DNA of 64,000 bases from Escherichia coli. Its GTDB lineage: Bacteria; Pseudomonadota; Gammaproteobacteria; Enterobacterales; Enterobacteriaceae. The position numbers and the translations under genes were made by a program. The stretch lies in assembly GCF_003018255.1 (NCBI RefSeq), contig NZ_CP027440.1; one strand, 5' to 3'. The notes under the pieces are model-generated. The model had not been told where the DNA came from and ran no database searches. It was given only the letters and a program-made list of their open reading frames with translations. This document shows, one piece after another, positions 5,146 through 44,443 of this stretch. Position 1 is the first letter of the stretch, and each line of letters begins with the position of its first letter.

Positions 5146-5423
5146 TTATCTGCATTATGCGTTGTTGGTTCTGATGAGTGAATCATTGTCTTTTGAGCAA
5201 CAGGCTATCATATAAGATAGCCTCAGACTTCCTTGTTTATTCTCGCCGGATGCTTCGTAGATATTTGCAGGCATCTGTATGCAGGGGTATTATTGCGGCA
5301 TATATCATCCGGAAAAATAAAAACTACATGCTGATCCGGAGATGATAGTTACAAGTCCTCCCGGATCCCGCATATTTACTATATTTTATAGATAATTGTT
5401 CTTGTTAATATGGAGATGGATAA

Positions 5424-5852
5424 ATGTATTGCCGTGCTGTACCTGTTCTTGTTTTGATATTAGCCAGTCTGACAACTGGCTGCACAAAAGATGTATCGAC
5501 AAATAATCATGATGCTTCTCTGTATCACTCAGATAAATTAATAACGTCGCAAAAATTGAGCTCATCGGAACGTACCCCTGATGCCAGTGAAGAAATCCGG
5601 CAGTATGCCATTCAGGTCAGGAAAGCCATAGAAGAACAGTTAAAGGATGCGAGTAAGTATTCAGGAAAAGAGTGTTCACTGAGAATGTATATGGCCCCGA
5701 ATGGTCTTCTGCTACGGGTTAAAAGAGAAAGCGGTGATCCCGATTTATGTCGTGAAGCGATGAATGCAGTAAAGAATGCTGATATACCATCACCACCGTC
5801 TTCAGGAGTATATAAAGCATTTAGAAATGGCGTGCTGGATTTTAAACTCTGA
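5424..5852 (+). CDS. lipoprotein carrying a TolA C-terminal (domain III)-like domain
   Basis: 142 aa. Signal peptide plus lipobox LTTG|C. The C-terminal ~85 aa align with the remembered E. coli TolA C-terminus (YSGKECSLRMYMAPNGLLLRV..GDPDLCREAMNAV...PSPPSSGVYKAFRNGVLDFKL vs YAGKTCTLRIKLAPDGMLLDI..GDPALCQAALAAA...PKPPSQAVYEVFKNAPLDFKP). Confidence 0.8.
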   Translation: MYCRAVPVLVLILASLTTGCTKDVSTNNHDASLYHSDKLITSQKLSSSERTPDASEEIRQYAIQVRKAIEEQLKDASKYSGKECSLRMYMAPNGLLLRVKRESGDPDLCREAMNAVKNADIPSPPSSGVYKAFRNGVLDFKL

Positions 5853-5906
5853 CAGGGGGAGAAGATTTTCTCCTGTCCTGATGATTTTGGGGCGCTGGAA
5901 AGATAT

Positions 5907-6164
5907 TGTGCTGTGAAGTGTTAAATCCCTCACAATTCAGTAAGTTGACAGTTGCCTGTCAGACTGAGCATTTGTTAAAAAAATTTCGCATGGTGAATCC
6001 CCCTGTGCGGAGGGGCGACTGGTGAACGGTATGATCTCTTTGATGATCGTAAGCGAGAATACGCGGGTTTGGTGTCACCGGGCTGAACTCACCGGGAGGC
6101 ACCCGGCACCATGCTCATGGTGATACAGAAATGCGGCTTCAGCCCCTCTCCGGAGGGGCTTTCT
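5907..6164 (+). ncRNA. solitary copy (unit A) of the ~250-bp structured-RNA unit
   Basis: Same four conserved boxes as the 7885-8904 array. Closing stem 5988-5995 GCATGGTG / 6107-6114 CACCATGC. Terminator GCCCCTC-TCCG-GAGGGGC at 6141-6157. Confidence 0.5.
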
Positions 6165-6170
6165 TATGGA

Positions 6171-6239
6171 CAAAAAAAGCCCGCGCTGGGAGACGCGGGC
6201 GGCAAGGAATAAACAATAAAACGTGAAGTAATACTTCAA
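6171..6239 (-). ncRNA. candidate small RNA, copy 1 (promoter to intrinsic terminator)
   Basis: Minus strand: TTGCGC (6275-6270), 18-bp spacer, TATTAT (6251-6246), then ~69 nt ending in GCCCGCG-TCTCCCAG-CGCGGGC plus U7. Paralogue at 8911-8989. Confidence 0.5.
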
Positions 6240-6320
6240 CTGGCGAATAATACCCGACAGTAATCACTCTGCGCAATAGCGTGGCCTTTTTCGAATTGCG
6301 GGCTGTAGTCTCCCTTCTGC

Positions 6321-6484
6321 CGGGTGTCCTGGTTGCAGATTTCTTCATGGGGTAGGGTTCGGCAGTTAAAGCAGCGATGGTGCTGGGGCGTCGTGCAACT
6401 GGCGTTGAGCTGGATACCGGGCGTTTTGAACAGACTGCGCAGGAAATCAGGGATGTATTTAGCGGGAGCGGTTTGCAGAAGTAA
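6321..6484 (+). pseudogene. 3'-terminal remnant of a second DNA methyltransferase gene
   Basis: Nucleotide-level similarity to 4789-4943 (CCTGGTTGCAGATTT..TTCATGGGGT.GGGTTCG...GGGGCGTCGTGCAACTGGCGTTGAGCTGGA). Has an in-frame TAG (ATG GGG TAG) and lacks the 5' ~900 bp. Confidence 0.8.
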
Positions 6485-6547
6485 TCTCCCAAAATGCCAT
6501 TTTTGGAATATACTGGTATTAAGTCTTTTTGCTCAGGTTAATTCAAA

Positions 6548-7273
6548 ATGGATGTTGCCTGCTCTGTGGTCCTGATTCGCTATCCGATAGATATTTTTCT
6601 TGAAAAAGAAAAAGTTTCACTCGATGCCGGAAGTGTTATGCTTGTTGCCAGAAATATAAGAGGGCTTTTCTGTGCTTATGCCGACAGAGTGAAAATGGCA
6701 GATATAAGTAACAGCGTCGTCAATCAGTATCTGGAAAGGGAGTGTGAACTGACGGAGTATACACCGACAAAAATGCCTCTTTATTTGATGTCTGATATTT
6801 ACAATACGGAACTGGCGGAGGCTTTAATAACCCAGCATAGTGAATCCAGTGATACTTTGAAGGATTTCTCTGTTATAACCGCATTTTCATGTATCTCCTT
6901 ATTTGCAACAGACAGACGTCTGCCATTATTTTTGTCCGGTGCTGTAAATAATATCAGCTGTAAAGTAAGGGCTATAATTCAGACCGACATATCGGCAGGC
7001 TGGATGCTTGGTGTGATTGCATTACAATTGCATATGAGCGAAAGCTTGTTGAAGCGAAAACTTAAGGATGAAGGTTATAGCTTTAGTCGGTTGTTGCTGG
7101 AGGAGCGAATGCGTGTTGCTGTTAATCTTGTATGTTTCCAGCGAGAGTGTGGACAAGCGATAGCGGAAAAATGTGGTTACTCAAGTAAGTCCTACTTCAT
7201 TTCTGTATTTCACCAGTATTATGGTGCACCACCTGAGAGCTATGCATATTTGCAGAAAGCAGACGTTATCTGA
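6548..7273 (+). CDS. AraC/XylS-family transcriptional regulator (prophage Psr/PatE-like)
   Basis: 241 aa. The C-terminal double HTH is typical of AraC (LLKRKLKDEGYSFSRLLLEERMRVAVNLV...IAEKCGYSSKSYFISVFHQYYGAPP). AT-rich moron. Confidence 0.8.
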   Translation: MDVACSVVLIRYPIDIFLEKEKVSLDAGSVMLVARNIRGLFCAYADRVKMADISNSVVNQYLERECELTEYTPTKMPLYLMSDIYNTELAEALITQHSESSDTLKDFSVITAFSCISLFATDRRLPLFLSGAVNNISCKVRAIIQTDISAGWMLGVIALQLHMSESLLKRKLKDEGYSFSRLLLEERMRVAVNLVCFQRECGQAIAEKCGYSSKSYFISVFHQYYGAPPESYAYLQKADVI

Positions 7274-7362
7274 TGTTTTTTCATCAGGCATATATTGATT
7301 GACTGTATTAGATATAGTCTGAATGTGTTCAGCATAAAAAGTTATAATCATTTGGTGTTTGC

Positions 7363-7641
7363 GTGAATATTGATGAGAAAATCAGATGTAGCCAACTGTT
7401 ACAGCGTATTGAAGCCGTCAATGTGGAACGAACAAAGGTCTTCAGTCGTCTGACAGTTTTATTTTGTACCCCTGATCGACGTTCAGGTCAGGAGATGGTT
7501 CTTCTGGATGTAGATGCACTTCGGAACGTCTGTGAGGAGTTCACCGCGGCTAATTCGGAGTTACTGAGTCTTGTTCAGGAGTACAACAGAATTGCAGGTA
7601 GTAACGGTTTTGATGAAATCAAAATTATATCCCGTGGATAA
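7363..7641 (+). CDS. hypothetical protein
   Basis: 92 aa, GTG start. Followed by the CCTGTAT...ATACAGG hairpin plus T-run (7651-7680). No family recognised. Confidence 0.4.
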   Translation: MNIDEKIRCSQLLQRIEAVNVERTKVFSRLTVLFCTPDRRSGQEMVLLDVDALRNVCEEFTAANSELLSLVQEYNRIAGSNGFDEIKIISRG

Positions 7642-7884
7642 AACATATCCTGTATATTTATGTTGTTACATACAGGCGCTTTTAGTATCTGCCGCACGGC
7701 AGTTGTACTTCAGAATAAGATGCTTTTGTGACTGGTGGTGTTGTATCTGGGGTTAGCCAGTAGGCAGGTTCAGAGAGTCCGGTGGTAATTATGTGTATGC
7801 AGTGGTTGTTGCTGTACCGTGGGCAAGTTCTGGAACTGGCTTCGTCCATTGTAGATGATTGTTAGCTGGATATCAGTTACCTCA

Positions 7885-8904
7885 TGGAAATGTTAAATGA
7901 CTCACAATTCGGTTGATGGGCTATTGTCTGATCGATGGAAGTCTTGTAAAAACGAGCCAGCATAGTGAATCCCCCTGTGCGGAGGGGCGTCTGACATGGT
8001 CTCCATAGCGATGGTCACAATACGCAGATTCAGTAGTCAGGCTGAATCTACCGGGAGGCACCCGGCACTATGCTGCTTATGGTGTATACATAGCGATCGG
8101 CCCCTCTCCGGAGGGGCTTTTTTTGTGCGGGAAAAGGCTGTGTTGTTAAGTGTTAAATTCCTCACAGTTCGGATGGTTGATGCTTGCCTGTCTGAGGGGG
8201 AGTTGTTAAAAAAGTTCTGCATGGTGAATCCCCCTGTGCGGAGGGGCGACTGGTGTGATTTGCATCTTTTCTGTTGTAGGCAATGCAAACGCGGGTTCAG
8301 GGACGCCAGACTGGACTCACCGGGAGGCACCCGGCACCATGTTCATGATGATACAGATACGCAGTGTCAGCCCCTCTCCTGAGGGGCTTTTTTATGCAGG
8401 AAAAACGCTGTGTTGTGAAATGTTAAATTCCTCACAGTTCAGATGGTTGATGCTTGCCTGTCTGAGGGGGAGTTGTTAAAAAAGTTCTGCATGGTGAATC
8501 CCCCTGAGCGGAGGGGCATATCAGCGCAGGTGTTTCTACTCTATCCTTTCTGTGCGGGTTCAGGTGCTGATACTGAACTCACCGGGAGGCACCCGGCATC
8601 ATGCATATGGTTAACAGACACGTAGCGAAGCCCCTCTCCGGAGGGGCTTTTTTATGCAGGGAAAAGGCTGTGTTGTGAAATGTTAAATTCCTCACAATTC
8701 ATGAGGTTGATGATTGTCTGATTGATGAGGAGTTTGTTAAAAAAAACGGGCATGGTGAATCCCCCTGTGCGGAGGGGTGATATCGTATCATTTCCTGTGT
8801 GGCCGACTGATATCACGGACATTTGTTCACCGGGAGGCACCCGGCACCATGCAGTATACAGAGATTAGGCATACATCCAGGCTCCTCATCGCAGGAGCCT
8901 TTTT
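7885..8904 (+). repeat. tandem array of four ~240-270-bp structured-RNA units (B 7885-8124, C 8125-8393, D 8394-8653, E 8654-8904)
   Basis: Each unit has box 1 TGTTAAAT.CCTCACA(A/G)TTC, box 2 TTGTTAAAAAA..GCATGGTGAATCCCCCTGTGCGGAGGGGC, box 3 CACCGGGAGGCACCCGGCACCATG, and an intrinsic terminator with a T-run. The ORFs crossing the units differ in frame and length. Confidence 0.85.
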
Positions 8905-8910
8905 ACATGT

Positions 8911-8989
8911 AAAAAAAAACCGCTCCTGGGAAGAGCGGTTGGCAAGGAAGCAAGGAATAAATAACAAAACGTGAAGTAATTTATTCAGC
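8911..8989 (-). ncRNA. candidate small RNA, copy 2 (promoter to intrinsic terminator)
   Basis: Minus strand: TTGCGC (9025-9020), 18-bp spacer, TATTAT (9001-8996), then ~79 nt ending in AACCGCTC-TTCCCAG-GAGCGGTT plus U9. Shares the core TTACTTCACGTTTT.TT.TTTATTCCTTGC with copy 1. Confidence 0.55.
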
Positions 8990-9137
8990 ACCCTAATAAT
9001 ACCTTAGAGTAATCACCTTGCGCAACTGTAAGGGCGTATTTCTTTTTTGCGGGCTGTTTTTCTGTGTGACTTTTGTGTTTCCGGTGGTCAGCCCGTGCCT
9101 TCTCTGACTCAGAACATTATCCCGGCCGGGAGGATTC

Positions 9138-11102
9138 ATGGCATTTAAACACTACGATGTGGTCAGGGCGGCATCGCCGTCAGACCTTGCTGAACGACTG
9201 ACACAAAAACTGAAGGAGGGCTGGCAGCCATTTGGCAGTCCGGTGGCCATCACGCCTTATACCCTGATGCAGGCCATTGCGGCGGAAGGTGATGTCACCA
9301 CACCAGTGGCGGTGACCGGTAATGAGGGTAAGGTGGTGGCTGTCAGTGCCACCAGCGACCCGGAGTATTACTTTGTTGTGGTTCTGGCAGGGCAGTCAAA
9401 TGGCATGTCGTATGGTGAAGGTCTTCCGCTGCCGGAGACATATGACCGTCCGGACCCGCGCATTAAGCAGCTGGCGCGCCGCAGTACGGTGACACCGGGC
9501 GGTGTTGCCTGTAAATATAACGACATCATTCCGGCGGACCATTGTCTGCATGATGTGCAGGACATGAGCCGTCTTAACCATCCGAAAGCGGACCTGTCAA
9601 AGGGGCAGTACGGTACCGTGGGGCAGGGGCTGCATATCGCCAAAAAATTGCTGCCGTTTATACCGGCGAATGCGGGCATTCTGCTGGTTCCGTGCTGTCG
9701 TGGTGGTTCAGCGTTCACCACCGGAGCTGATGGCACATACAGTGACGCGAGTGGTGCCTCGGAGAATTCAACCCGCTGGGGTGTGGACAAGCCGCTGTAT
9801 AAGGACCTTATCGGTCGAACAAAAGCAGCACTGAAGAAGAACCCGAAAAATGTGCTGTTTGCCGTGGTGTGGATGCAGGGGGAATTTGATTTTGGCGGTA
9901 CGCCGGTAAATCACGCAGCACAGTTTGGTGCGCTGGTTGATAAATTCCGTGCAGACCTGGCGGATATGGCAGGCCAGTGCGTCAGTGGCTCTGCTGGCAG
10001 TGTTCCCTGGATATGCGGGGACACGACGTATTTCTGGAAGCAGAAGAACGAATCCACGTACCAGACGGTGTACGGCAGCTATAAAAACAAAACGGAAAAG
10101 AATATCCATTTCGTACCGTTCATGACGGATGAGAACGGGGTGAATGTGCCGACGAACAAACCGGAAGAAGACCCGGACATTCCGGGTATCGGGTATTACG
10201 GTTCGAAATGGCGTGACAGCTCAGCCACCTGGACGTCACAGGACAGGGCGAGCCATTTCAGCACCTGGGCACGCCGGGGGATTATTTCCGACCGTCTGGC
10301 AACGGCGATTCTGGTGCACGCCGGGAGAACCGCTGAATTCATTACCGGAAAACAGCCTGATATGGTGAAGCCCACCGTACCTTCCGGTGAAGGTCCGGAG
10401 AGAGAGGCGGAAGCCCCGGTCAGTAACCGAACCCTGATGAGTCTGCTGGCATCCGGCGAAGACCTGGCATCACAGGGCTGGCGCTATTATCACAAACCGG
10501 CGGGCGGAGACAGTGTTAACAAAAACATTGCTGAAGCGGTGGTCAGTGATGCGGGGGCTACGGGAGGTAAGGCCCTGCAACTGAACAAACCGGAAAACCA
10601 CATCTGGTTTCTGGAGCATGATGCAGCCGGACAGGGTGCGGAGTTACTGAAGAAGGGCGGACGTGTGAGCGTACGGTTTAAGTTGCCGGGTTCACTGGTG
10701 CCGAATCAGTTTGCCCTGGGCATTTACTGGCAGTTGTCGTCCCTGCCGGAGGGGGTGACGCTGTCAGGAGAAGGTAACGATATGCTGATGTCTTTCTTCC
10801 TGCAGACGGATACGACGAACCTGAACGCGATGCATCACAGGAAGCCGAATGCGAAGCTGGATACATTCGGGGTCTTTGATAACGGATGGCACACGCTGGC
10901 TTTTGAGTTTGCCGGAAACAACAGCATTCAGGTGACACCAGTACTGGATGAGAAACGGGGAGCGGCGTTCACACTGGTGAAGTCACCGGCATCGGGGGCG
11001 GCGGACAAACTGCAACTGACCGATATATCAAAATCGGCGACGTATACGCTGCTGATTGACAGCATTGCGGTGGAAGTGAACAGCACAGACACTGCGGCAT
11101 GA
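9138..11102 (+). CDS. NanS-p-type prophage sialate O-acetylesterase (DUF1737 + SASA esterase + C-terminal lectin-like domain)
   Basis: 654 aa. The N-terminus MAFKHYDVV...GWQPFGSP is DUF1737-like. The block VVLAGQSNGMSYG is a GDSL/SASA-type catalytic motif. It sits upstream of the lysis genes, as for nanS-p genes of EHEC lambdoid prophages. Confidence 0.8.
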   Translation: MAFKHYDVVRAASPSDLAERLTQKLKEGWQPFGSPVAITPYTLMQAIAAEGDVTTPVAVTGNEGKVVAVSATSDPEYYFVVVLAGQSNGMSYGEGLPLPETYDRPDPRIKQLARRSTVTPGGVACKYNDIIPADHCLHDVQDMSRLNHPKADLSKGQYGTVGQGLHIAKKLLPFIPANAGILLVPCCRGGSAFTTGADGTYSDASGASENSTRWGVDKPLYKDLIGRTKAALKKNPKNVLFAVVWMQGEFDFGGTPVNHAAQFGALVDKFRADLADMAGQCVSGSAGSVPWICGDTTYFWKQKNESTYQTVYGSYKNKTEKNIHFVPFMTDENGVNVPTNKPEEDPDIPGIGYYGSKWRDSSATWTSQDRASHFSTWARRGIISDRLATAILVHAGRTAEFITGKQPDMVKPTVPSGEGPEREAEAPVSNRTLMSLLASGEDLASQGWRYYHKPAGGDSVNKNIAEAVVSDAGATGGKALQLNKPENHIWFLEHDAAGQGAELLKKGGRVSVRFKLPGSLVPNQFALGIYWQLSSLPEGVTLSGEGNDMLMSFFLQTDTTNLNAMHHRKPNAKLDTFGVFDNGWHTLAFEFAGNNSIQVTPVLDEKRGAAFTLVKSPASGAADKLQLTDISKSATYTLLIDSIAVEVNSTDTAA

Positions 11103-11236
11103 TAAAAAAAGCCGCCAGTTACCGGAATGGACTGGCGGTGGTAATACCCATGGAGAAATATAAAGGAACGATACTTTCGTGCTCTGTTTTTTTAAATGAA
11201 AACAGTTCTTATTGTCAACAATAACGGTAAGAAATT

Positions 11237-11416
11237 ATGACTTTTATTCATCAGGTGATGCTGTACTTCTGTACGGCAGTCTGTGTGCTGTATCTCCTTT
11301 CGGGTGGATACCGGGCCATGCGTGACTTCTGGCGCAGACAGATTGACAAAAGGGCCGCTGAGAAAATCAGCGCCAGTCAGTCAGCCGGAAGCAAACCCGA
11401 AGAGCCGCTCATTTAG
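11237..11416 (+). CDS. small single-pass membrane protein (59 aa, below the ORF-track cutoff)
   Basis: Read by hand: MTFIHQVMLYFCTAVCVLYLLSGGYRAMRDFWRRQIDKRAAEKISASQSAGSKPEEPLI. N-terminal TM helix followed by a basic tail. Confidence 0.45.
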   Translation: MTFIHQVMLYFCTAVCVLYLLSGGYRAMRDFWRRQIDKRAAEKISASQSAGSKPEEPLI

Positions 11417-11456
11417 CGGCAACTTTCTTAATCACACCTTTCGACGAGAAAATCCC

Positions 11457-11702
11457 ATGTCAGAAATTACATCCCTGGTCACTGCTGAAGCAGTGAAGGA
11501 CGTCCTGCGCTCTGAAGAAGTCCTGAGCGCACTGAAACAGAAACTGCGCCATAAGCTGGAAGCGCGTCTTGATGCAGAAGTGGATGCCATTCTGGATGAA
11601 CTGCTGGGCGCACCGGCAGCTCCGGAGCCGGAAGGCATCGCGGGTGAGGGGAGTGCTTCAGATAGCGGTGACCCCACACCTGACAGCGACATGATGATGT
11701 AA
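11457..11702 (+). CDS. DUF826-like small acidic protein
   Basis: 81 aa from ATG 11457 (internal to ORF 11283..11702): [51 protein letters not shown]... Sits immediately upstream of the holin, as in Stx-type phages. Confidence 0.6.
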
Positions 11703-11779
11703 GCATGCGTCAGGGACCATCGGTGTGTGCCGGTGGTCTTTTTTATTGTTGTGAGCTTCCGGATTGCGGGAGACGGGGT

Positions 11780-11995
11780 ATGTACCAGATGGAAAAAATC
11801 ACAACAGGTGTGTCATACACCACGTCAGCGGTGGGAACGGGCTACTGGTTCCTGCAGTTGCTGGACAGGGTTTCCCCGTCTCAGTGGGCGGCAATAGGCG
11901 TGCTGGGGAGTCTGCTGTTTGGGCTGCTGACATATCTGACGAACCTGTATTTCAAAATTAAAGAAGACCGGCGTAAGGCGGCGCGGGGAGAGTAG
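11780..11995 (+). CDS. class II holin, phage-21 S21 pinholin type, with dual-start motif
   Basis: 71 aa: [71 protein letters not shown]. Very close to the remembered S21 sequence. Met1/Met4 form the dual start. Confidence 0.9.
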
Positions 11996-11998
11996 ACG

Positions 11999-12790
11999 AT
12001 GAATAAACAATACGAACTGGTTGTTAAAGGGATAAATATTTACCCGGATAAGATTACTGTTACTGTGGCGCTGGAAACGGGTGGGTATACGTCACTGTTG
12101 TTGCCAAATGTGGTGATTGATCTTGATCGTGTTGAAGGTGCCCCGCTGGAGTTTTACGAAGCTGAGGCGAAAAAGAAGGCGAAGCAGTTTTTCATGGATA
12201 TTGCTGCCGGGTTATGTGAAGGGAACGAACCGTTGCCGGAAAAGCGCCTCTGTTCAGAAGAGCGGTATACCATACAAATTAACAATGCATATAACACGAT
12301 ACAGTCAGAAAAAGATGATATCGAATCACGCATTGAAAAACTGGAGAACAGCGTCGTTGAACTGAATAAAAAACTGTCGGTGCAGATCCCTTCCGAAGGT
12401 GAAAAAAAACGCCGTGATGAGCAGTTCGCGGCGTTTTACGATTATTGCCGGAAAGTGATGAGCAGAAATCTCGCAGAGTGTTTCCGTATTCAAAAAAACA
12501 GAGAGCGCTCTGCAAATAGTGAGATTCTGGATAATTTTTTAAAGGGGACGCATCTCGCCAGTGATTGTTTCATTGCTCATTCTTTTGGTGGCTTTCATGA
12601 GGCCATCAAACATGATGTTGAGAGAAGTCCAGGTATCCTCTGTTCCATTCCCGTAAGCATCGAAATAGACACAAATACGATAACCGGTGAACTCGTTACC
12701 GCCGGAGTCGGTATATTCCGTCATGAGGGGAACGATGCCAAAGGTTCCTTTACAAAAATCGGGCCGTTCTTTCTGAAGGTAGAGCGATAG
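11999..12790 (+). CDS. hypothetical protein with central coiled coil (cassette gene A between holin and endolysin)
   Basis: 263 aa. SD GGGAGAG; ATG lies 3 nt after the holin stop. The last 84 codons are codon-aligned antisense to gene B, so the true 3' end and function are uncertain. Confidence 0.5.
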   Translation: MNKQYELVVKGINIYPDKITVTVALETGGYTSLLLPNVVIDLDRVEGAPLEFYEAEAKKKAKQFFMDIAAGLCEGNEPLPEKRLCSEERYTIQINNAYNTIQSEKDDIESRIEKLENSVVELNKKLSVQIPSEGEKKRRDEQFAAFYDYCRKVMSRNLAECFRIQKNRERSANSEILDNFLKGTHLASDCFIAHSFGGFHEAIKHDVERSPGILCSIPVSIEIDTNTITGELVTAGVGIFRHEGNDAKGSFTKIGPFFLKVER

Positions 12791-13171
12791 TTTGTTAAGT
12801 ACCCATCCGACAGCTCGCTCATTTTGGTTTATTTTCGTATCGCGAAACAAAAATTCGAAGCGGCCAGATGACGCATGGGTGCAACCAAATACCGGGGCGT
12901 ATTCATCAACCTTTGGTGTTCCTGAAAACATGCAGTCCGTGCTCTCGAATGCAGATGAATTGCTGTTGATCCACTTAACAAAAGAAAAAAAGGTCTGAAT
13001 CGCTTGTCTGTCTGAATATTCAACAAAATCCTCAAGGTGTGTCTCGATCAGTTCCGGGTGTTTACGAAAGTCATAATATTGACCGGGACGATATTTATGA
13101 GTGGTTGTTTTATCCCATGGTTGTGCTCTGCGTCCCTGTAAACGGAGGTCTGCCGCTGGATAGATAAGCAT
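12539..13171 (-). CDS. hypothetical protein (cassette gene B, convergent with gene A)
   Basis: 210 aa from ATG 13171, with SD AGGAG 7 nt upstream (the ORF-track start 13240 lacks an RBS). No family recognised. AT-rich. Confidence 0.6.
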   Translation of the reverse strand: MLIYPAADLRLQGRRAQPWDKTTTHKYRPGQYYDFRKHPELIETHLEDFVEYSDRQAIQTFFSFVKWINSNSSAFESTDCMFSGTPKVDEYAPVFGCTHASSGRFEFLFRDTKINQNERAVGWVLNKLSLYLQKERPDFCKGTFGIVPLMTEYTDSGGNEFTGYRICVYFDAYGNGTEDTWTSLNIMFDGLMKATKRMSNETITGEMRPL

Positions 13172-13301
13172 AAGTAATCTCCTGGTGGAATGTAATCCAC
13201 GATCATCCGGGGAAATTAAGAACCCGCCAGTGCCCACCACTGGTGGGGTGAAGGCTTAACATATCCAGGGATTCGGAACCGATAAATCCTGATAAATATC
13301 C

Positions 13302-13835
13302 ATGAACACCAAAATCAAATACGGCCTGTCGGCTGCCGTTCTGGCGCTGATTGCCGCAGGGGCGCCTGCGCCTGATATTCTCGACCAGTTTCTGGATGAA
13401 AAAGAAGGTAACCACACCACGGCATACCGTGATGGTGCGGGTATCTGGACCATTTGTCGTGGTGCCACCAGGGTGGATGGCAAACCTGTCGTCCCGGGCA
13501 TGAAGTTGTCGAAGAAAAAATGCGACCAGGTTAACGCCATTGAGCGTGATAAGGCGCTGGCATGGGTGGAGAAAAACATCAAAGTGCCACTGACTGAACC
13601 CCAGAAAGCGGGTATTGCGTCATTCTGTCCTTACAACATTGGCCCCGGTAAGTGTTTCAGCTCAACGTTTTACCGGAAACTGAACGCCGGAGACCGTAAA
13701 GGCGCATGTGCTGAAATTCGTCGCTGGATATATGACGGTGGTCAGGACTGCCGTATTCGTTCAAACAACTGTTACGGTCAGGTATCCCGTCGTGACCAGG
13801 AGAGCGCGCTGGCGTGCTGGGGAATCGACAGATAA
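13302..13835 (+). CDS. SAR endolysin (GH24 T4-lysozyme family, phage-21 R type)
   Basis: 177 aa. N-terminal signal-anchor-release segment GLSAAVLALIAAGAPA. Catalytic E-x8-D-x5-T in EGNHTTAYRDGAGIWT. Matches a pinholin partner. Confidence 0.9.
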   Translation: MNTKIKYGLSAAVLALIAAGAPAPDILDQFLDEKEGNHTTAYRDGAGIWTICRGATRVDGKPVVPGMKLSKKKCDQVNAIERDKALAWVEKNIKVPLTEPQKAGIASFCPYNIGPGKCFSSTFYRKLNAGDRKGACAEIRRWIYDGGQDCRIRSNNCYGQVSRRDQESALACWGIDR

Positions 13836-14108
13836 GCAGAATATTTTGCTGAAAAATGATGTTGGCCAACGCGGGTGGATAACACGAAATCCTGCGAACT
13901 GGCAAAACCTAAGTGAATAAAGTCAGGAACATTGTTTCACGCAGAGGCACCGTAATGGTGCCTTTGTCATTTCTGCGCTTCGCACAAGCGTAAATAAACC
14001 AAAGAACCTTTCAGGATGAGCCCTGGTGGATAACCGGCAGTGGTCTGGTTAACCCTCTTTGGGCTGGTTATTCCTGTGCGCAGGGTTCATTACTAAAAGG
14101 AATCAACC

Positions 14109-14804
14109 ATGAAAGAGATGATTTCTGTCGATCATGAAATATCCATGAGTAGTCTGGATTTTCTGAATAACATTATTAATCCAGCCCGGGCAGAAGCCGG
14201 AGAAGTCCCTCATGAACCGCGTAAGTTTCTTGCAAAAATTGAGGATGAACTTGAGCTTGATGGAACCGGAAAAAAATTCCGGTTAAACAATAACCAGACA
14301 AGAACGGCATACTATGATCTGGATTTTGACCAGATGATGCTCGTTGGCATGAGGGAGTCAAAGGCCGTTCGTCGTTCTGTGCTGGCAAGACTCAAAGCGA
14401 TGCATGGTATTCAGATCCCCCGGACTTTACCTGAGGCGTTGCGATTTGCGGCAAAACTGGCAGAACAGAAAGCAGTGCTGGAAAATCAACTGGCAATAGC
14501 AGCGCCGAAGGCTGAATTTGTTGATAACTATGTTGAAGCATCTGGTCTGATGGGATTCCGGGAAGTTGCTAAGTTACTCGGTATCAAAGAAACCGATTTC
14601 CGGCTGTTTTTGTTGGAGAACGGAATAATGTATCGCCTCGCTGGAAAAATGACGCCTTACTCGCATCACCTGGATGCGGGGCGGTTTAGCGTGAAAACGG
14701 GCGAGGCGGGCAATGGTCATGCTTTTACGCAGGTTAAATTCACCCCAAAAGGTGTTCAGTGGATTGCTGGTCTGCTTGCTGCATGGAGAGCTACCGCAGC
14801 ATGA
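14109..14804 (+). CDS. antirepressor-like protein (KilAC/Ant C-terminal domain) inserted between R and Rz
   Basis: 231 aa. The C-terminal half (AAPKAEFVDNYVEASGLMGFREVAKLLGIKETDFRLFLLENGIMYR) is KilAC-like. Stx-type phages carry an Ant-like gene at this position. Confidence 0.7.
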   Translation: MKEMISVDHEISMSSLDFLNNIINPARAEAGEVPHEPRKFLAKIEDELELDGTGKKFRLNNNQTRTAYYDLDFDQMMLVGMRESKAVRRSVLARLKAMHGIQIPRTLPEALRFAAKLAEQKAVLENQLAIAAPKAEFVDNYVEASGLMGFREVAKLLGIKETDFRLFLLENGIMYRLAGKMTPYSHHLDAGRFSVKTGEAGNGHAFTQVKFTPKGVQWIAGLLAAWRATAA

Positions 14805-14896
14805 AGATGATAAAAATGGACTGGAAATTTTTGCTGGTCTGGCTGATTCCGTTTTTATGGGTGGTTGCCCGGTTAATTACTGCTATTAAGGGGTAA
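14801..14896 (+). CDS. 31-aa hydrophobic micro-ORF
   Basis: Read by hand: [35 protein letters not shown] overlap with the ant stop. Confidence 0.3.
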
Positions 14897-14898
14897 AG

Positions 14899-15030
14899 AT
14901 GTCAGACAAACTCATAACGCTGGCGAAGGGCCTTTGTGTAATCGTCGGTATTTCATTTTCACTAATGCTGGTTGTTCTTTTTCTTTCCATAACCTGGATG
15001 GCGTTGACTTCGGCAGGGCTGGTGGGGTGA
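14899..15030 (+). CDS. 43-aa hydrophobic micro-ORF
   Basis: Read by hand: [43 protein letters not shown]. Its stop overlaps the Rz GTG start (GTGA). Confidence 0.3.
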
Positions 15031-15500
15031 GCATAAACCGAATGCTTTCCGCGTTTACCGTTATTCTGCTGGTGGTCTGTGGTGCGCTTAGTCTGGGGCT
15101 GAATCATTACCGCGATAACGCCATCACCTACAAAGCGCAGCGCGATAAAAAAGCCAGAGAGCTGGAGCTGGCAAACGCAACCATTACTGATATGCAGGTG
15201 CGCCAGCGCGATGTTGCTGCGCTCGATGCAAAATACTCGAGGGAATTAGCCGATGCGAGAGCTGAAAATGAAACTCTGCGCGCTGATGTTGCCGCTGGTC
15301 GTAAGCGCCTGCGGATCAACGCCACCTGCTCCGGTACCGTGCGTGAAGCCACCGGCACCTCCGGCGTGGGCAATGATGCCGCCGTCGAACTCTCTCCGGT
15401 TGCTGGACGAAACGTTCTCGGTATCAGAGACGGAATCATCAGCGACCAGGCTGCATTGAGAATGCTTCAGGAATATATTCGCACTCAGTGTATTAACTAG
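15027..15500 (+). CDS. Rz i-spanin
   Basis: GTG start chosen by alignment to remembered lambda Rz (…[42 protein letters not shown]). N-terminal TM helix. Confidence 0.85.
15253..15459 (+). CDS. Rz1 o-spanin lipoprotein, embedded in the +1 frame of Rz
   Basis: [20 protein letters not shown]... with lipobox VSA|C and the proline-rich [10 protein letters not shown], as in lambda Rz1. Confidence 0.85.
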
Positions 15501-15523
15501 TATTTTTGTTATCCGGAGAATGC

Positions 15524-15748
15524 ATGAAGAAATTACTGGTAACCGTAAAGCCTTTTCAGGGAACAATTCCGTTCCGTATTTTGCAGCGTGGTCGTGTTCT
15601 TGTTGAAGGTTCGTTCAGTGGTAAATGTACGCAATTACGCTCCCGGACCTTTCAGGTGAATGCCACGAATGAAGAGCTAACCGTTGAGTGTACGATGAAT
15701 GCCGCTAAATGCCGTATGGTATCGGCTGCATTACAGCCAGTGTGTTGA
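15524..15748 (+). CDS. hypothetical 74-aa protein
   Basis: ATG 15524 with SD GGAG 7 nt upstream. No family recognised. Confidence 0.4.
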   Translation: MKKLLVTVKPFQGTIPFRILQRGRVLVEGSFSGKCTQLRSRTFQVNATNEELTVECTMNAAKCRMVSAALQPVC

Positions 15749-16086
15749 GCGACCTTATTATCCATGCGCGGTATTGTCGCCGTATTCCCGTATTAACAGA
15801 GACCGCAGCCCGACAGGGAGACTCCTCTGCGCGAGTGTGCGGGGATAATCAAAAACGATACACACCGGGGTTTACCGCGTTAACGGAGCGCGGCGTTGTC
15901 CCCTCATGGTCGCTGGTCCGGTGCGATGGTGGAAGAAACCGGACGATGTGTTACCTCGCAAGACCTGTTATGTCATGTGTCTGATTTGTGATTTAAGTCG
16001 GATAATTGTCGTTGCCATTAAGCAGAGGATTGATGGCCGACAGGGTGGCATTGTTAGAATAAGACTTATTCTTATCTGTGCCGGGA

Positions 16087-16419
16087 ATGAAAATGAAAAG
16101 AAATCTTCCGTTAATTATTTTGTTGTCTTCTCTGGTTATGGGCTGTACGCAACATAAAACAGATATGCCCCGACAGTTGGTTAAGGCATTACCACAATAT
16201 CCGGCCTATGCAGCGGCAAATTATATAAAGGGACGGGTTGATGTGAAGTTTGATATTGGTGCTGATGGTACTGTCACCCGAATTGAGTTTATCCGTTCAG
16301 AGCCGCACCATCTGTTTGATGAGCAGGTTGTAAAGGCGATGGCAAAATGGCGATTTGAGAAGGACAGGCCGCGTAAAGGCGTGAAGAAAACGTTTATCTT
16401 TAGTCCTTCTGCACCCTGA
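16087..16419 (+). CDS. lipoprotein carrying a TonB C-terminal-like domain
   Basis: Signal peptide plus lipobox LVMG|C. LPQYPAYAAANYIKGRVDVKFDIGADGTVTRIEFIRSEPHHLFDEQVVKAMAKWRFE matches the remembered TonB C-terminal pattern [56 protein letters not shown]. Confidence 0.8.
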   Translation: MKMKRNLPLIILLSSLVMGCTQHKTDMPRQLVKALPQYPAYAAANYIKGRVDVKFDIGADGTVTRIEFIRSEPHHLFDEQVVKAMAKWRFEKDRPRKGVKKTFIFSPSAP

Positions 16420-16550
16420 TTATTTCATCAGAAATTAATTATCACTCTGTTGTTATTCTGTACATCCCGGCTGGGTAAGTCTTGTTCCGCCGGGTATGAA
16501 GATGAAATATTGTTGGAGGACAGTGGGTACCTGCTCCTGTAACCGAACGT

Positions 16551-16751
16551 TCATTTCTCGTTATTTGTCATGCTGGCCGGACGCAGATGCGTTGCATCTG
16601 TTGCCAGCCTTCTCCTGCAGGCTTCAATAACCCACGCTGAAAAGTTACCGGACCCTTTATGCTCAAGGGCGATGTTGATCTGTTCAATCATGTGATTGGG
16701 GAAACGGATATTGCGGGTTGTGGTTCTGCGGGTCCGGTTTTTCGATGACAT
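16551..16751 (-). CDS. YlcI/YnfO-family (DUF3950) small protein
   Basis: 66 aa from the internal ATG: MSSKNRTRRTTTRNIRFPNHMIEQINIALEHKGSGNFSAWVIEACRRRL. Near-identical N-terminal 50 aa to the remembered DLP12 YlcI. Confidence 0.8.
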   Translation of the reverse strand: MSSKNRTRRTTTRNIRFPNHMIEQINIALEHKGSGNFSAWVIEACRRRLATDATHLRPASMTNNEK

Positions 16752-16792
16752 ATTTATTTCCTTTACTGATTGCCATATGACGGGGATTTTAC

Positions 16793-17158
16793 ATGGCTCA
16801 GCTTCGTACACTCCAGAGCAGAATCAAAACACTGAATACCCGACGGGTGAATATTCTGAAGGGTGAACAGCGTCGTGTCAGTGGCAGTGCACGTGTTTCC
16901 CTCAAGCGTCATATCTGGCTCAGGGACGCCGGGCAGTGCTGTCTCTGTGGTCGTGTGGTTGACCTCTGTGACAGTGAACTCGATCACCGAATTGCACTTC
17001 AGTTCGGTGGTGGTAATGAGGAGACGAATCTCTGGACGCTCTGTACCGAATGCCATCGACAAAAGTCTGCTCGTGAAGCGGCGGGTGGTATGCCGGACCC
17101 GACGCTGCCGGAGGTGTCCGGAGGTAGTGACAGAGCGGACGACATCATCGGACTGTAA
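16793..17158 (+). CDS. HNH endonuclease (terminase-associated)
   Basis: CCLCG...LDHRIAL..GG.N...NLWTLCTECHRQK is an HNH motif. It lies directly upstream of terS/terL, as in HK97-like packaging modules. Confidence 0.85.
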   Translation: MAQLRTLQSRIKTLNTRRVNILKGEQRRVSGSARVSLKRHIWLRDAGQCCLCGRVVDLCDSELDHRIALQFGGGNEETNLWTLCTECHRQKSAREAAGGMPDPTLPEVSGGSDRADDIIGL

Positions 17159-17251
17159 CCCGACCCGGGGGGGTATCATCCGGCGTAAAAAACGATCGCT
17201 TTGGACACCGCGCCCCCTCTCACGCAGAGAAAAAATTCCCGTTTCAGGGCA

Positions 17252-17446: not shown

Positions 17447-18010
17447 GTGCTGACAACGCAAAAACGAAAATTTGCGCTGGCGCTCATGTCCGGGAAAAAC
17501 AAAACAGCGTCAGCCATTGCCGCCGGTTATTCGGCGAAGACAGCCAGGGTTAAAGGCTCGCAGCTGGCAAAAGATCCGGAGGTGCTTGCGTTTATAGCCC
17601 GTAAACAGTGCGAGACGGTGGAGGTGGATGAGGTTCCTGTTTACCGGCAGAAAAAATCAGAGCAGGAGGATAAACCCCGTCGCCGTGAGGCGGCTGCAAT
17701 ACCACAGCCGGACGAAACAAATCCGGAGATGCCACCGCCCGTGGTGATATCTCCTGGTATTGAGTATATGGAGGACGGTCTTCCCGATCCGGTGAAAGCG
17801 ATGGGGCGTCTTCTGGTGGAGAACATTAATACCGACCCCAGGCTGGCGCTGGATGCGGCTTATAAGCTGGCGCAGTTCACGCACCACAAAAAAGGGGATG
17901 CCGGTAAAAAATCGGCAAAAGGTGACGCGGCGAAAAAAGCGGCTAACCGTTTTGCGGTGCCACCACCACCCCGACTGGTGGTGAATAATGATAATGAGGG
18001 CAACGGATGA
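17447..18010 (+). CDS. terminase small subunit (P27 / Terminase_2 type)
   Basis: GTG 17447 with SD GGAGGAGG upstream. LTTQKRKFALALMSGKNKTASAIAAGYSAKTARVKGSQLAKDPEV is typical of TerS N-termini. The ORF-track ATG 17381 is an alternative start. Confidence 0.75.
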   Translation: MLTTQKRKFALALMSGKNKTASAIAAGYSAKTARVKGSQLAKDPEVLAFIARKQCETVEVDEVPVYRQKKSEQEDKPRRREAAAIPQPDETNPEMPPPVVISPGIEYMEDGLPDPVKAMGRLLVENINTDPRLALDAAYKLAQFTHHKKGDAGKKSAKGDAAKKAANRFAVPPPPRLVVNNDNEGNG

Positions 18011-19668
18011 TACCTGTGTGGAGCACGGCCTGCCCGGACTGGGCAGAGCGCCTGAAAAAGGGGCTGTCGATTATTCCGGCCCCGATTTATTCGGATCAGG
18101 CTGCACATGCACTGGCGATTTTTAAACAACTGCGGATTGTGGATGCACCGGGCAGCCCGACGTTCGGGGAGTCCTGCGCACAGTGGGTGTTTGACCTGGT
18201 GGCGGCCCTGTTTGGCTCCTACGATGCGCAGACCGGTGTACGCCATATCAAGGAAGTTTTTATCCTTATCCCCAAGAAAAACAGCAAGTCCACGCTGGCT
18301 GCCGGGATCATGATGACGGCGCTGTTACTGAACTGGCGGCAGGCGGCGGGCTACACCATTCTGGCCCCGACCGTGGAGGTGGCGGCTAACGCCTTTAATC
18401 CTGCGCGGGATATGGTACGACGGGACGATGATCTGGATGACCTCTGCCAGGTGCAGACACATATCCGGACCATCACCCACAGGGTGACGGACACCACCCT
18501 TAAGGTGGTGGCTGCCGACCCGAATACGGTATCCGGTATCAAGTCCGTGGGGACGCTGATTGATGAACTGTGGTTATTTGGCAAGCAGTACAAAGCGGAG
18601 GACATGTTACGTGAAGCCATAGGCGGCCTTGCCTCCCGCCCGGAAGGGTTTGTGGTGTATACGACCACCCAGTCGAATGAGCCGCCAGCCGGGGTGTTCA
18701 GACAGAAACTGCAGTACGCCCGGGATGTCCGTGACGGCAAAATTCATGATCCGCACTTTCTGCCGGTGATATTTGAGCATCCGCCGGAGATGGTGGAGCG
18801 CGGTGAGCACCTGCTGATGGAAAACCTCGCCATGGTCAATCCGAATCTCGGTTATTCGGTGGATGAGGCTTTTCTGTACCGGGAGTACCGTAAAGCCCGG
18901 GAGGCTGGTGAGGAAGCATTTCGTGGCTTCATGTCAAAACATGCCAATGTGGAAATTGGTCTTGCCCTGCGTTCTGACCGCTGGACGGGTGCGGATTTCT
19001 GGGAGCAGCAGGGCAGGCGCGTCAGCCTGGACGATATCCTGCAGCGCGCTGATGTGGTGACGGTGGGGATTGACGGCGGGGGCCTGGATGATCTGCTGGG
19101 AATGTACGTGATTGGCCGTGACAGGGAAACCCGCGAATGGCTGGGCTGGGGCCATGCCTGGGCGCATGAAACCGCGGTGGTCAGACGGAAGAGTGAGGCA
19201 TCCCGGTTTCAGGATTTTGTGGCCTGTGGAGATATGACGATTGTCCGTCGGGTCGGGGATGACACGGCGGAAGTGGCGGAGTATGTGCGTCGTATTCATG
19301 AGGCTGAGTTACTGGAGCATATCGGTATTGACCCGTCAGGTGTGGGGCAGATTCTGGATTCACTGGCGGAAGCCGGGATCCCCGACGGAATTGTTGTGGG
19401 GATAAGCCAGGGCTGGAAGCTGGGCGGGGCCATAAAAACCACCGAGCGCAAACTGGCTGAGGGAGTGCTGGTGCATGGTGGTCAGCCACTGATGGCCTGG
19501 TGCGTTGGCAATGCCCGGGTGGAGCCGAAAGGTAACGCCATCCTTATTACCAAACAGGCCAGCGGACGGGGGAAAATTGACCCGCTGATGGCGCTCTTCA
19601 ATGCGGTATCCCTGATGTCCCTGAATCCGGAGCCGAAAAAGAAAGAATATGCGGTTTTTTTCATATAA
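18007..19668 (+). CDS. terminase large subunit (Terminase_1 / HK97 type)
   Basis: 553 aa. 4-nt overlap with terS. Walker-A-like PKKNSKST. Typical size and position. Confidence 0.85.
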   Translation: MIPVWSTACPDWAERLKKGLSIIPAPIYSDQAAHALAIFKQLRIVDAPGSPTFGESCAQWVFDLVAALFGSYDAQTGVRHIKEVFILIPKKNSKSTLAAGIMMTALLLNWRQAAGYTILAPTVEVAANAFNPARDMVRRDDDLDDLCQVQTHIRTITHRVTDTTLKVVAADPNTVSGIKSVGTLIDELWLFGKQYKAEDMLREAIGGLASRPEGFVVYTTTQSNEPPAGVFRQKLQYARDVRDGKIHDPHFLPVIFEHPPEMVERGEHLLMENLAMVNPNLGYSVDEAFLYREYRKAREAGEEAFRGFMSKHANVEIGLALRSDRWTGADFWEQQGRRVSLDDILQRADVVTVGIDGGGLDDLLGMYVIGRDRETREWLGWGHAWAHETAVVRRKSEASRFQDFVACGDMTIVRRVGDDTAEVAEYVRRIHEAELLEHIGIDPSGVGQILDSLAEAGIPDGIVVGISQGWKLGGAIKTTERKLAEGVLVHGGQPLMAWCVGNARVEPKGNAILITKQASGRGKIDPLMALFNAVSLMSLNPEPKKKEYAVFFI

Positions 19669-31234: not shown

Positions 31235-32398
31235 ATGAAAAAAATGACAGTGGCACTTTCTGCTGTAGCAGTTGCAGTGATGTTTGCTGCGGGGGCGCAG
31301 GCAGCAGAAGTTTATAATAAAGATGGTAATAAACTGGATCTTTACGGGCGTGCAACCGCTCTGCATTACTTCTCGGATGATAAAGGTAATGACGGAGATC
31401 AGACTTATGCTCGTCTCGGCTTTAAAGGCGAAACGCAGATTAATGATCAACTGACCGGATTTGGTCAGTGGGAATACCAGTTCTCTGGTAACAAAACGGA
31501 ATCTGAAGGTTCCGCGGGAAATAAAACCCGTCTGGCATTTGCAGGTCTGAGATTTGCTGATGTTGGTAGCATTGATTACGGACGTAACTACGGTATTGCT
31601 TACGATGTCGGATCATATACTGACGTACTGCCAGAGTTTGGTGGTGATGGCTGGACTCAGACCGATAACTTTATGACTGCCCGAACTTCCGGAGTTCTGA
31701 CTTACCGTAATACAGATTTCTTTGGGCTGGTTGATGGTCTGAATTTTGCGGCGCAGTATCAGGGCAAAAATGAGCGCGATGACCTCCAGAAGGCCAATGG
31801 TGATGGGTATGGTTTCTCAGCCAGCTATGAGTTTGATGGTTTTGGTTTTGTGGCTGCGTATACCAAGTCAGATCGTACCAATAAGCAGGTTCAGGGACTG
31901 AATGGTAGCAAAACTATTGAAATCAAAGATCCTTTAACTGGGGATGTGACTGAAAAAGAAGTGGTCGTTGATTCCGGCAGCGTTGCAAAAGGTAAACATG
32001 CTGAATTCTGGGGAACTGGTCTTAAATATGATGCCAATAACCTGTATCTGGCAGCAGTGTATTCAGAAACCCAGAATATGACGACCTTTGGTGATCAAGG
32101 TGTTGCGGATAAAGCTCAGAATATCGAAGCCGTTGTTCAGTATCAGTTTGATTTTGGTCTGCGTCCGTCTCTGGCCTACCTTCAGTCCCGAGGACAGGAT
32201 GTTATGGTTGGTGGTGTGAACCATGGCGATCAGGATCTGGTTAAATATATTGATGTCGGTGCGACTTATTACTTTAACAAGAATATGTCCACCCATGTTG
32301 ATTATAAAATTAACCTGATTGAGGAAAGTGAATTTACCCGGAAAGCCGGTGTTGCGACAGATAATATCGTTGCTGTGGGTATGACTTATCAGTTCTGA
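31235..32398 (+). CDS. general-diffusion porin of the OmpC/OmpF/PhoE/NmpC family
   Basis: 387 aa. Signal peptide ...AQA|[15 protein letters not shown], then [21 protein letters not shown], and the C-terminal ...VAVGMTYQF typical of enterobacterial porins. Confidence 0.9.
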
Positions 32399-39398: not shown

Positions 39399-39539
39399 AT
39401 GTCGCAAAAACCGTTAAAAACCACCGTGATTTGTATCACGGTAGTGCTCATTATCTGGATCACCCACACTTCACTGTGCGAGTTCCGGTTCCGGATAGCG
39501 GGCGCGGAGATTGCGGCGTTCTTACAGTGTAAGCGGTAA
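39399..39539 (+). CDS. Hok/Gef-family type I toxin (46 aa, below the ORF-track cutoff)
   Basis: Read by hand: MSQKPLKTTVICITVVLIIWITHTSLCEFRFRIAGAEIAAFLQCKR. TM helix plus the family motif SLCE(I/F)R(Y/F)R..G..E(V/I)AAF. SD GGAG 8 nt upstream. Confidence 0.8.
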   Translation: MSQKPLKTTVICITVVLIIWITHTSLCEFRFRIAGAEIAAFLQCKR

Positions 39540-42937: not shown

Positions 42938-43130
42938 CGGGTAAAAAAATTTCCGTTATCAGGAATGTATAAAATTAAAGCAATCGAGCAAAAAAACTCT
43001 CTGCAAAACTAAAAAAGATCTCAATAAAATCAGGCAGTTAAAAACACGGAAAAACGGTATAAAAAAGCATCTCAAAATCCTGTTTTTTCTTTCAGATACA
43101 ATATGTTATTGCATTTTTTAAAACCTGCCA

Positions 43131-43247
43131 GTCTGGTACATGGATATTGATACCACTGCCAATTATAAACTGGGCGGTGCACAGCAACACGATAGCGTAC
43201 GCCTCGATCCGTGGGTGTTTATGTTCTCAGCAGGATATCGTTTTTAA
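43131..43247 (+). pseudogene. ompW: 3' fragment of ompW (last 38 codons), separated from the rest of the gene by the prophage
   Basis: Translates to VWYMDIDTTANYKLGGAQQHDSVRLDPWVFMFSAGYRF*, the remembered K-12 OmpW C-terminus. The upstream in-frame sequence hits TAA at 43119-43121. Confidence 0.85.
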
Positions 43248-43812: not shown

Positions 43813-43857
43813 GAAAATGTCCTCTTTATAAAATGACTAAAAGTTAAAGTTCATATT

Positions 43858-44358: not shown

Positions 44359-44443
44359 ATTTTTCTCCAGTGAAATCACTGCGAGCCATACGGCCCGCAG
44401 ATGCAATTATCTTTATCAGCTGATATTAATAATTAACGGTGAA

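Follow-up and report, generated by a model that had tools for sequence, protein, structure and literature searches.

In complex structures, the TonB box joins the beta3 edge of the TonB sheet as an added strand (PMC9249621; PMC5413942). The periplasmic TonB fragments 33-239, 103-239, and 122-239 inhibit the TonB system, which results in iron-deficient growth and no transport of 55Fe-ferrichrome (bioRxiv 10.1101/2020.01.05.895219). Llp, an acylated lipoprotein of T5, binds FhuA from the periplasmic side over a footprint that overlaps that of TonB (bioRxiv 10.64898/2026.03.26.714494). Here, we describe a small prophage lipoprotein that carries a TonB C-terminal domain (CTD), referred to as the TonB_C lipoprotein. 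Its gene (16093..16419, + strand) belongs to a lambdoid prophage inserted in ompW and lies in a 64,000-nucleotide stretch of the Escherichia coli contig NZ_CP027440.1 (the window, to which all positions refer). By analogy with the systems above, the protein may act as a dominant-negative mimic of TonB, anchored in the outer membrane, through which the lysogen would tolerate phages and colicins that depend on TonB. We favour this reading tentatively and rate it somewhat short of even.

The TonB_C lipoprotein shares its fold, 37-39% identity, the YP motif, G186, the cluster of five important TonB aromatics (F180, F202, W213, Y215, and F230), and a basic isoelectric point (pI) with the E. coli TonB CTD (residues ~153-235; 1U07, 2GSK, and 2GRX; E. 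coli TonB residues are given in our own numbering). However, it is predicted to be lipid-anchored to the opposite membrane, has Leu and Tyr in place of Q160 and R166, and lacks the terminal strand of TonB (234-239). It also differs from a functional TonB transducer in two respects. Instead of an N-terminal membrane helix, it has only the cleavable signal peptide of a lipoprotein as a hydrophobic segment, and seven residues, rather than a proline-rich rod, separate Cys18 from the domain. Engineered periplasmic TonB fragments are likewise TonB C-terminal regions cut off from their energy source. Unlike these soluble, longer, artificial, and overexpressed fragments, the prophage protein is natural and domain-only, with a predicted outer-membrane tether.

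Other phage lipoproteins resemble the TonB_C lipoprotein in size and location. Llp (T5) and Cor (phi80, N15, and HK022) are also small phage lipoproteins of the inner leaflet of the outer membrane and act on the periplasmic face of FhuA. However, they protect against their own receptor class, whereas the receptor-binding domain of the window prophage is of the porin type. The TonB_C lipoprotein has no Pfam match beyond TonB families, and Llp (8A60) is not among the 50 PDB fold matches listed. Bor/Iss of lambda, likewise a lipoprotein moron of the outer membrane, has its gene in the same slot after Rz/Rz1, next to the TonB_C gene in phage 21; its fold and sequence are unrelated to the TonB_C lipoprotein, and it is on the opposite strand. 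The Rz1 o-spanin is another small outer-membrane lipoprotein beside Rz, but it lacks a globular TonB_C domain. A TolA domain-III lipoprotein of the window has the same design (a lipobox plus an outer-membrane-proximal transducer domain) but is a separate moron with an independent distribution. As a domain, the protein is a member of TonB_C; it is neither a TonB system nor a spanin, and it shows no Cor/Llp similarity.

The TonB C-terminal domain and its membrane anchor

The TonB_C domain spans residues 26-105 (16168..16407, + strand) in the order strand-helix-beta1-beta2-helix-beta3. Membership of the TonB_C family is far above chance, with matches to Pfam PF03544 (TonB_C; E value 5.5e-15, 56 bits against a cutoff of 24.6 bits) and TIGR01352 (E value 2.6e-15, 56.5 bits against a cutoff of 27.1). 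Equivalog models of full-length TonB match through their C-terminal ~85 positions only (profile ~152-240), at 50-73 bits against cutoffs of 265-448. In a phmmer search of the PDB, E. coli and Salmonella TonB CTD chains were recovered at 3e-16. The alignment covers E. coli TonB from Pro153 to approximately residue 235, with an identity of ~38%.

An AlphaFold2 model was built from seven family members, and its predicted local distance difference test (pLDDT) score exceeds 93 over residues 31-100. Foldseek placed the model on TonB of the BtuB:TonB (2GSK) and FhuA:TonB (2GRX) complexes with a target-normalised template-modelling (TM) score of 0.91 and a root-mean-square deviation (rmsd) of 1.1 Å; over the matches 2gsk_B, 1u07, and 2grx_C, the score ranges from 0.88 to 0.91 at the same rmsd. 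A first, sequence-only reading of this DNA had described a lipoprotein with a TonB CTD and proposed a structural comparison as the check. The superposition, the lipobox, and the Pfam and TIGR scores all agree with that description. In the BFVD viral structure library, no match was found at E <=1e-3, so the fold of the TonB_C lipoprotein appears to be rare among catalogued viral proteins.

The TonB residues with kept equivalents are Y163-P164 (the YP motif), G174, F180, D181, G186, P198, F202, W213, E216, P220, and F230; Y215 corresponds to Phe in the prophage protein. In the family alignment including TonB, Y36 is invariant and P37 is present in at least 90% of the members (P0035 has Leu). G59, F75, W86, and F103 vary little or not at all.

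Three start codons are candidates for the open reading frame (ORF) ending at 16419 on the + strand, namely GTG 16078, ATG 16087, and ATG 16093. The Shine-Dalgarno sequence GGGA (16083..16086, + strand) lies 6 nt before ATG 16093, and its spacing fits this start only. A ribosome-binding site is annotated at the equal relative position in the phage 21 record, and ATG 16093 is the start chosen by both RefSeq and the curated phage 21 annotation. Because the Shine-Dalgarno spacing and these annotations agree, the product is most likely 108 residues long rather than 110, and this form is identical to RefSeq WP_000828070.1 ('TonB family protein'). The sequence-only reading was thus right about an intact frame to 16419 on the + strand, but its 110-residue product starting at 16087 gives way to the shorter form.

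As read from the sequence, the signal peptide MKRNLPLIILLSSLVMG and the lipobox Cys18 occupy 16093..16146 (+ strand; Cys codon 16144-16146). The lipobox is LVMG↓C, with Thr at +2 in place of the Asp that signals inner-membrane retention, which predicts sorting by Lol to the outer membrane (inner leaflet). All full-length relatives retain a lipobox (LAVGC, LSVGC, LISAC, LLSAC, or LLGC) with an invariant Cys, and Asp at +2 was found in none of the aligned relatives. The seven-residue tether TQHKTDM (16147..16167, + strand) leads from the lipidated Cys to Pro26, the equivalent of TonB Pro153. The pLDDT score stays under 50 for residues 19-21, rises to a mean of 79 for residues 21-30, and is at least 93 in the domain. 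The mature lipoprotein is basic (pI 9.8, compared with 10.4 for the TonB CTD).

Distribution, selection, and genomic setting

The gene was found by tblastn in 15 deposited phage genomes. Copies with 98-99% identity occur in four Stx1a phages, JLK-2012 and Lys8385Vzw, and copies with 71% identity occur in the classical phage 21, ev017, Perceval, and three PhiR phages; one Klebsiella phage carries a 40%-identical copy. In every phage examined, including the Klebsiella phage, the gene is located after the lysis cassette (after bor if present) and before the terminase, and this slot between Rz/Rz1 and the terminase is common to three diverged phage lineages. Among 5426 complete E. coli genomes, the window allele is present in 414 (~8%), of which 393 carry it at 99% identity or more; its carriers include O157:H7 EDL933, O145:H28, O111:H8, and O55:H7. 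The phage-21-type allele is present in 1225 (~23%), including UTI89, and 1203 of these copies are at least 99% identical. Almost invariant, it ranks among the more frequent prophage cargo genes that lack a characterisation. Every full-length match listed, for both alleles, sits under an intact coding sequence annotated as 'TonB family protein'.

Strong purifying selection acts on the gene. The Nei-Gojobori ratio of nonsynonymous to synonymous substitution rates (dN/dS) between the window and phage 21 alleles is 0.12 (0.11 for the mature part, with a dS of ~1.5), and it ranges from 0.13 to 0.22 among Klebsiella and Raoultella copies. Several phage-21-type database variants (P0010 and P0012-P0021) lose the beta3 strand through a frameshifted or extended C-terminus and may be occasional pseudogenes or assembly errors. 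The gene has been labelled TonB-like since the annotation of CP-933N in EDL933, and it appears as 'TonB C-terminal domain protein' in phage 21, so the observation of the gene itself is not new. A full-text literature search found precedents only and no functional study of the TonB_C lipoprotein.

In addition to the phage copies, a scan of species-representative genomes identified homologues of 45-51% identity in two Klebsiella and three Raoultella species and a 33%-identical homologue in a Pseudescherichia metagenome-assembled genome. All of these homologues have a lipobox. Klebsiella sp. I138, Klebsiella sp. R390, and Raoultella lignicola share a non-phage synteny in the order lacZ, lacI, a secreted glycine-zipper protein, the TonB_C lipoprotein, and then DUF1440 or a hydrolase. 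The glycine-zipper (Rick_17kDa_Anti) and TonB_C genes, at 5419-6333, 5426-6333, and 5370-6276 of the respective loci (L007, L010, and L011), may form a two-gene envelope operon. No phage genes were found among the flanking ORFs scanned in L007 and in part of L010. The neighbours of the Pseudescherichia homologue (L013) have PHROG matches of unknown function only. DUF1440 (YagU-like) adjoins the TonB_C gene in some species and is also present in the Klebsiella phage that carries the gene. An exhaustive profile search added approximately ten more 50%-identity clusters of 107-133-residue TonB_C proteins with a lipobox, set apart from the thousands of ordinary TonBs. It appears that a small outer-membrane lipoprotein of enterobacteria was recruited by phages or exchanged with them.

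In the window, the TonB_C gene follows a lysozyme gene, an antirepressor gene, and then the Rz i-spanin (15042..15500, + strand; intact, Pfam 2.4e-39), in which the Rz1 o-spanin is embedded (15253-15459; intact, 7e-21). On its other side lie a convergent YlcI/YnfO (DUF3950) gene (16551..16751, - strand) and an HNH endonuclease gene (16793..17158, + strand), which starts the packaging module. HK97-type terminase and head genes lie beyond it (TerS ends at 18010; TerL, 18007-19668). The window-allele protein always travels with this same YnfO-HNH-terminase module. The location between the lysis cassette and the packaging genes is as the sequence-only reading described it. The GC content across the gene is 42-46%, compared with 54-59% in the neighbouring late genes; the stretch that had been called AT-rich is therefore lower in GC than its surroundings, but only modestly so. 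In related Stx2 phages, the flanks match and the TonB_C gene is absent. The gene is an insert between functional modules that is variably present in related phages, which fits the moron-like character that had been proposed.

The prophage is closely matched by one in E. coli strain 4 (NZ_CP045209.1), also in ompW next to the trp operon, with 99.9% identity over 15500-17200 and 99.2% over 5424-16419. The right end of the window prophage (~43122-43247) borders on a fragment of ompW, beyond which yciEFG and the trp operon follow (43306-51534); the ompW copy is truncated. Going by the gene order of K-12, host tonB is presumably a few kb beyond the other prophage end. The phage copy is only ~38% identical to host tonB, which is not a recent source.

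Proposed function and competing explanations

In the proposed mechanism, the TonB CTD, the only folded part of the lipoprotein, would be held at the inner leaflet of the outer membrane. With neither a transmembrane helix nor a proline-rich rod, it would not couple to ExbB/ExbD, and its predicted position is at the periplasmic face of the outer membrane, where TonB boxes emerge. The exposed beta3 edge could then capture a partner by beta-strand addition. Candidate partners are the TonB boxes of transporters (such as FhuA, BtuB, FepA, and Cir) and of group B colicins on their way in, and also host TonB itself through its own beta3 edge. TonB is the scarcer partner, and the beta3-edge contact is presumably the one seen in TonB CTD dimers (1U07). 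Whichever partner is captured, transport would be uncoupled from the proton-motive force, and the lysogen would gain tolerance to heterologous T1/phi80-like phages, colicins B, D, Ia, and M, and microcins. The sequence-only reading took it as a premise that the TonB system is inhibited by periplasmic fragments of TonB, and bioRxiv 10.1101/2020.01.05.895219 both reviews and reproduces this effect.

Several observations favour the mimic. In the model, the interface-forming elements and beta3 are kept, and the predicted domain superposes on TonB as bound to BtuB and FhuA. The 108-residue protein has none of the parts that energy transduction requires. In addition, every full-length relative has a lipobox, the gene is under purifying selection, its slot is shared, and its prevalence is high. 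The C-terminal receptor-binding domain of the prophage J protein is of the lambda/434 (porin) type, with 44-51% identity. Because J is porin-type, blocking TonB would be harmless to the phage itself, and since the prophage also has no cor gene, any exclusion would be aimed at other phages or bacteriocins. Self-exclusion through FhuA or another TonB-dependent receptor was rejected as the primary rationale: J is of the lambda/434 type, records of phi80, N15, and HK022 were absent from the 40 J-match rows sampled, and no cor gene was found in the prophage.

Judging by strand and position, the gene is transcribed with the late operon under Q. It may plausibly also be expressed in the lysogen, from TGTTAGAAT (16052..16060, + strand), a putative extended -10 element. 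The element lies within the block ATTGTnAGAATAAGAC, which is common to the window and the 71%-identical phage 21 allele in otherwise diverged intergenic DNA. A perfect palindrome, GAATAAG-A-CTTATTC (16057..16071; 7-1-7), overlaps the putative -10 element and start site. Its likeness to a Fur box is weak (13 of 19 consensus positions; a score of at least 13 is reached at 25 positions of the whole window on both strands), and the phage 21 allele lacks its right half. Because that half is lost in phage 21, Fur regulation through this palindrome is kept as a lead only. Further upstream, the 21-nt block CGGTGCGATGGTGGAAGAAAC (15919..15939, + strand) is identical upstream of the phage 21 allele, with diverged flanks. 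An ATG inside this block opens an 18-codon ORF here and an annotated 45-codon ORF in phage 21.

Several observations weigh against the mimic. Residues that contact the transporters are altered. At Q160 of TonB, a classical TonB-box suppressor site, the window protein has Leu and the phage 21 allele Tyr, whereas a Klebsiella homologue keeps Gln. R166, which reportedly pairs with FhuA E56 (Pawelek, 2006), corresponds to Tyr here and to Tyr or another non-basic residue in every aligned family member. The seven-residue tether is very short, and the canonical docking pose under a 22-strand barrel might be out of reach from the lipid anchor. The published inhibitory fragments are longer and may act partly via ExbD (bioRxiv 10.1101/2020.01.05.895219). 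Moreover, a constitutive TonB blocker would cost iron and B12 uptake. For expression in the lysogen, a strict sigma-70 scan found no promoter on the + strand, and no terminator was found. PADLOC defence models gave no match for the TonB_C lipoprotein, nor for the TolA-III lipoprotein. Finally, the combination of fold and anchor is not phage-specific, because homologues sit in a conserved non-phage locus, and these conserved chromosomal homologues argue for some cellular envelope role.

Such a role is the substance of the first competing explanation, in which the protein is an ordinary envelope lipoprotein that might bind peptidoglycan or another periplasmic partner by means of its TonB/TolA-like fold and serve outer-membrane tethering or stress tolerance, with a gene of an enterobacterial chromosome taken up as a bor-like fitness moron. 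We consider this possible but rather doubtful. It would account for the 45-51%-identical lipoproteins in the lacZ-lacI locus of three Klebsiella/Raoultella species and for the roughly ten additional lipobox TonB_C clusters. It also fits the place of the phage 21 copy beside bor, another outer-membrane lipoprotein moron, and the lack of conservation at Q160 and R166. However, the domain retains exactly the features that TonB uses for strand addition, and it is just as conceivable that a copy in the chromosome serves to restrain TonB-dependent import in a regulated way.

The other two explanations are far less probable. An accessory lysis or late protein, made from the late transcript only, would help to disrupt or modify the outer membrane at lysis or prevent the loss of progeny on debris. 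Its family, phrog_1267 (match at 1.9e-42), is labelled 'Rz-like spanin', and the gene lies downstream of Rz/Rz1 on the late-operon strand with no strict promoter. Nevertheless, intact Rz and Rz1 are already present, and the protein is a folded alpha/beta domain that resembles neither a short proline-rich o-spanin nor a u-spanin with a C-terminal membrane helix. Spanin identity was therefore rejected, and the label is best seen as an annotation artefact, since the prophage has its genuine spanins and the TonB_C product is globular. The gene is also ~590 bp from Rz, with the oppositely oriented bor in between in phage 21. A TonB mimic would give no protection to progeny with a porin-type receptor-binding domain, and the chromosomal homologues have no lysis genes nearby. 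A lysis role is thus quite improbable. The least probable account, which we would give hardly any weight, is a decaying, functionless relic of a captured tonB 3' end. Old annotations such as 'partial tonB-like membrane protein' and 'TonB fragment' and the frameshifted C-termini of some database variants point that way, but the selection and conservation data already contradict it. The dN/dS of 0.12 holds across diverged alleles, 393 of 414 and 1203 of 1225 genomes carry copies at least 99% identical to the query, and the listed full-length matches lie under intact coding sequences. In addition, the lipoprotein has a conserved signal peptide of its own, which tonB lacks, and its ~38% identity to host TonB excludes a recent fragment. 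Together, these four accounts leave some of the probability unassigned.

If the mimic is real, a prophage gene acting on every kind of TonB-dependent traffic at once would be present in as many as three in ten sequenced E. coli, among them the uropathogen UTI89. Such traffic comprises nutrients (siderophores, haem, and B12) as well as group B colicins, microcins, Trojan-horse antibiotics of the albomycin type, and T1/phi80-like phages. This would bear on the control of enterohaemorrhagic E. coli by colicins or phages, on siderophore-conjugate antibiotics, and on the iron physiology of lysogens. It would also represent a new principle of superinfection exclusion based on a hijacked host transducer domain, unlike the receptor-specific binders Llp and Cor. 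If the mimic is wrong, the gene still defines an abundant, conserved, and unexplained family of outer-membrane lipoproteins.

The TolA-III lipoprotein and other prophage features

The TolA domain-III lipoprotein is encoded at 5424..5852 (+ strand; lipobox LTTG↓C) in the stx slot, downstream of Q and tRNA-Ile/tRNA-Arg, and belongs to phrog_5772 (unknown function). It matches Pfam TolA at 1.1e-22 and E. coli TolA III at 2.8e-25, with 52% identity over 88 residues. The sequence-only reading was therefore correct in placing a TolA-domain lipoprotein in the same prophage. TolA-like alleles are present in 894 of the 5426 complete E. coli genomes (~16%), mostly as an 81%-identical allele; the window's own allele (at least 90% identity) accounts for ~122 of the 894.

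The two genes assort independently across phages and genomes. No phage record contains both: the TolA-like gene is missing from each of the 15 TonB-like records, and the TonB-like gene from the sole TolA-like record (mEp460_ev081). In five carriers drawn from an evenly spaced listing of TonB-like genomes, the stx slot held TerB and DUF3927 or nothing, and none (0/5) had the TolA-like gene in the same prophage. With the 11-kb segment as query, both genes were found in one place in 26 of the top 60 rows, and in four further genomes their coordinates lie no more than a few kb apart. The same-prophage pair thus occurs in at least 30 genomes, all of a single prophage lineage. In other genomes, such as OkiPb01692, N51, and LC-1302-2020, the two genes are in separate prophages. 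An obligate two-gene system of TolA and TonB CTDs was rejected on the basis of the phage records (0/15 and 0/1), the sampled carriers (0/5), and the restriction to one lineage. Because the genes assort independently and the TonB-like gene travels with the YnfO-HNH-terminase module, their pairing is the outcome of modular recombination. The pairing that had been called striking is consequently not a conserved feature. The sequence-only reading was not aware of any characterisation of the pairing, and the literature search found none.

A broader possibility is that lipid-anchored copies of the TonB CTD and TolA-III form a widespread class of prophage import blockers. Each alone would cover Ton- or Tol-dependent colicins and phages, the rare double carriers would cover both, and the Klebsiella/Raoultella homologues would be regulated brakes on TonB-dependent uptake. 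We regard this extension as speculative and on the unlikely side.

The prophage also carries an OmpC-like porin gene (31235-32398, + strand; 387 residues, phrog_410, RefSeq 'porin OmpC'), with tape-measure and tail genes on one side and minor tail protein L on the other. The lc gene of phage PA-2 encodes a prophage porin that takes the place of the receptor porin. By analogy, the OmpC-like porin might replace the receptor porin of the lambda/434-type J protein. A gene for a Hok/Gef family toxin (~39399-39539, + strand) lies between the tail-tip J and side tail-fibre genes. In the holin-lysozyme interval, a DUF1327 ORF (11999-12790, + strand) encodes 263 residues here and is a truncated pseudogene in a near-identical RefSeq record. 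It is overlapped by a 233-residue ORF on the - strand (12539-13240) with no Pfam match, and the interval looks like the site of an insertion or rearrangement.

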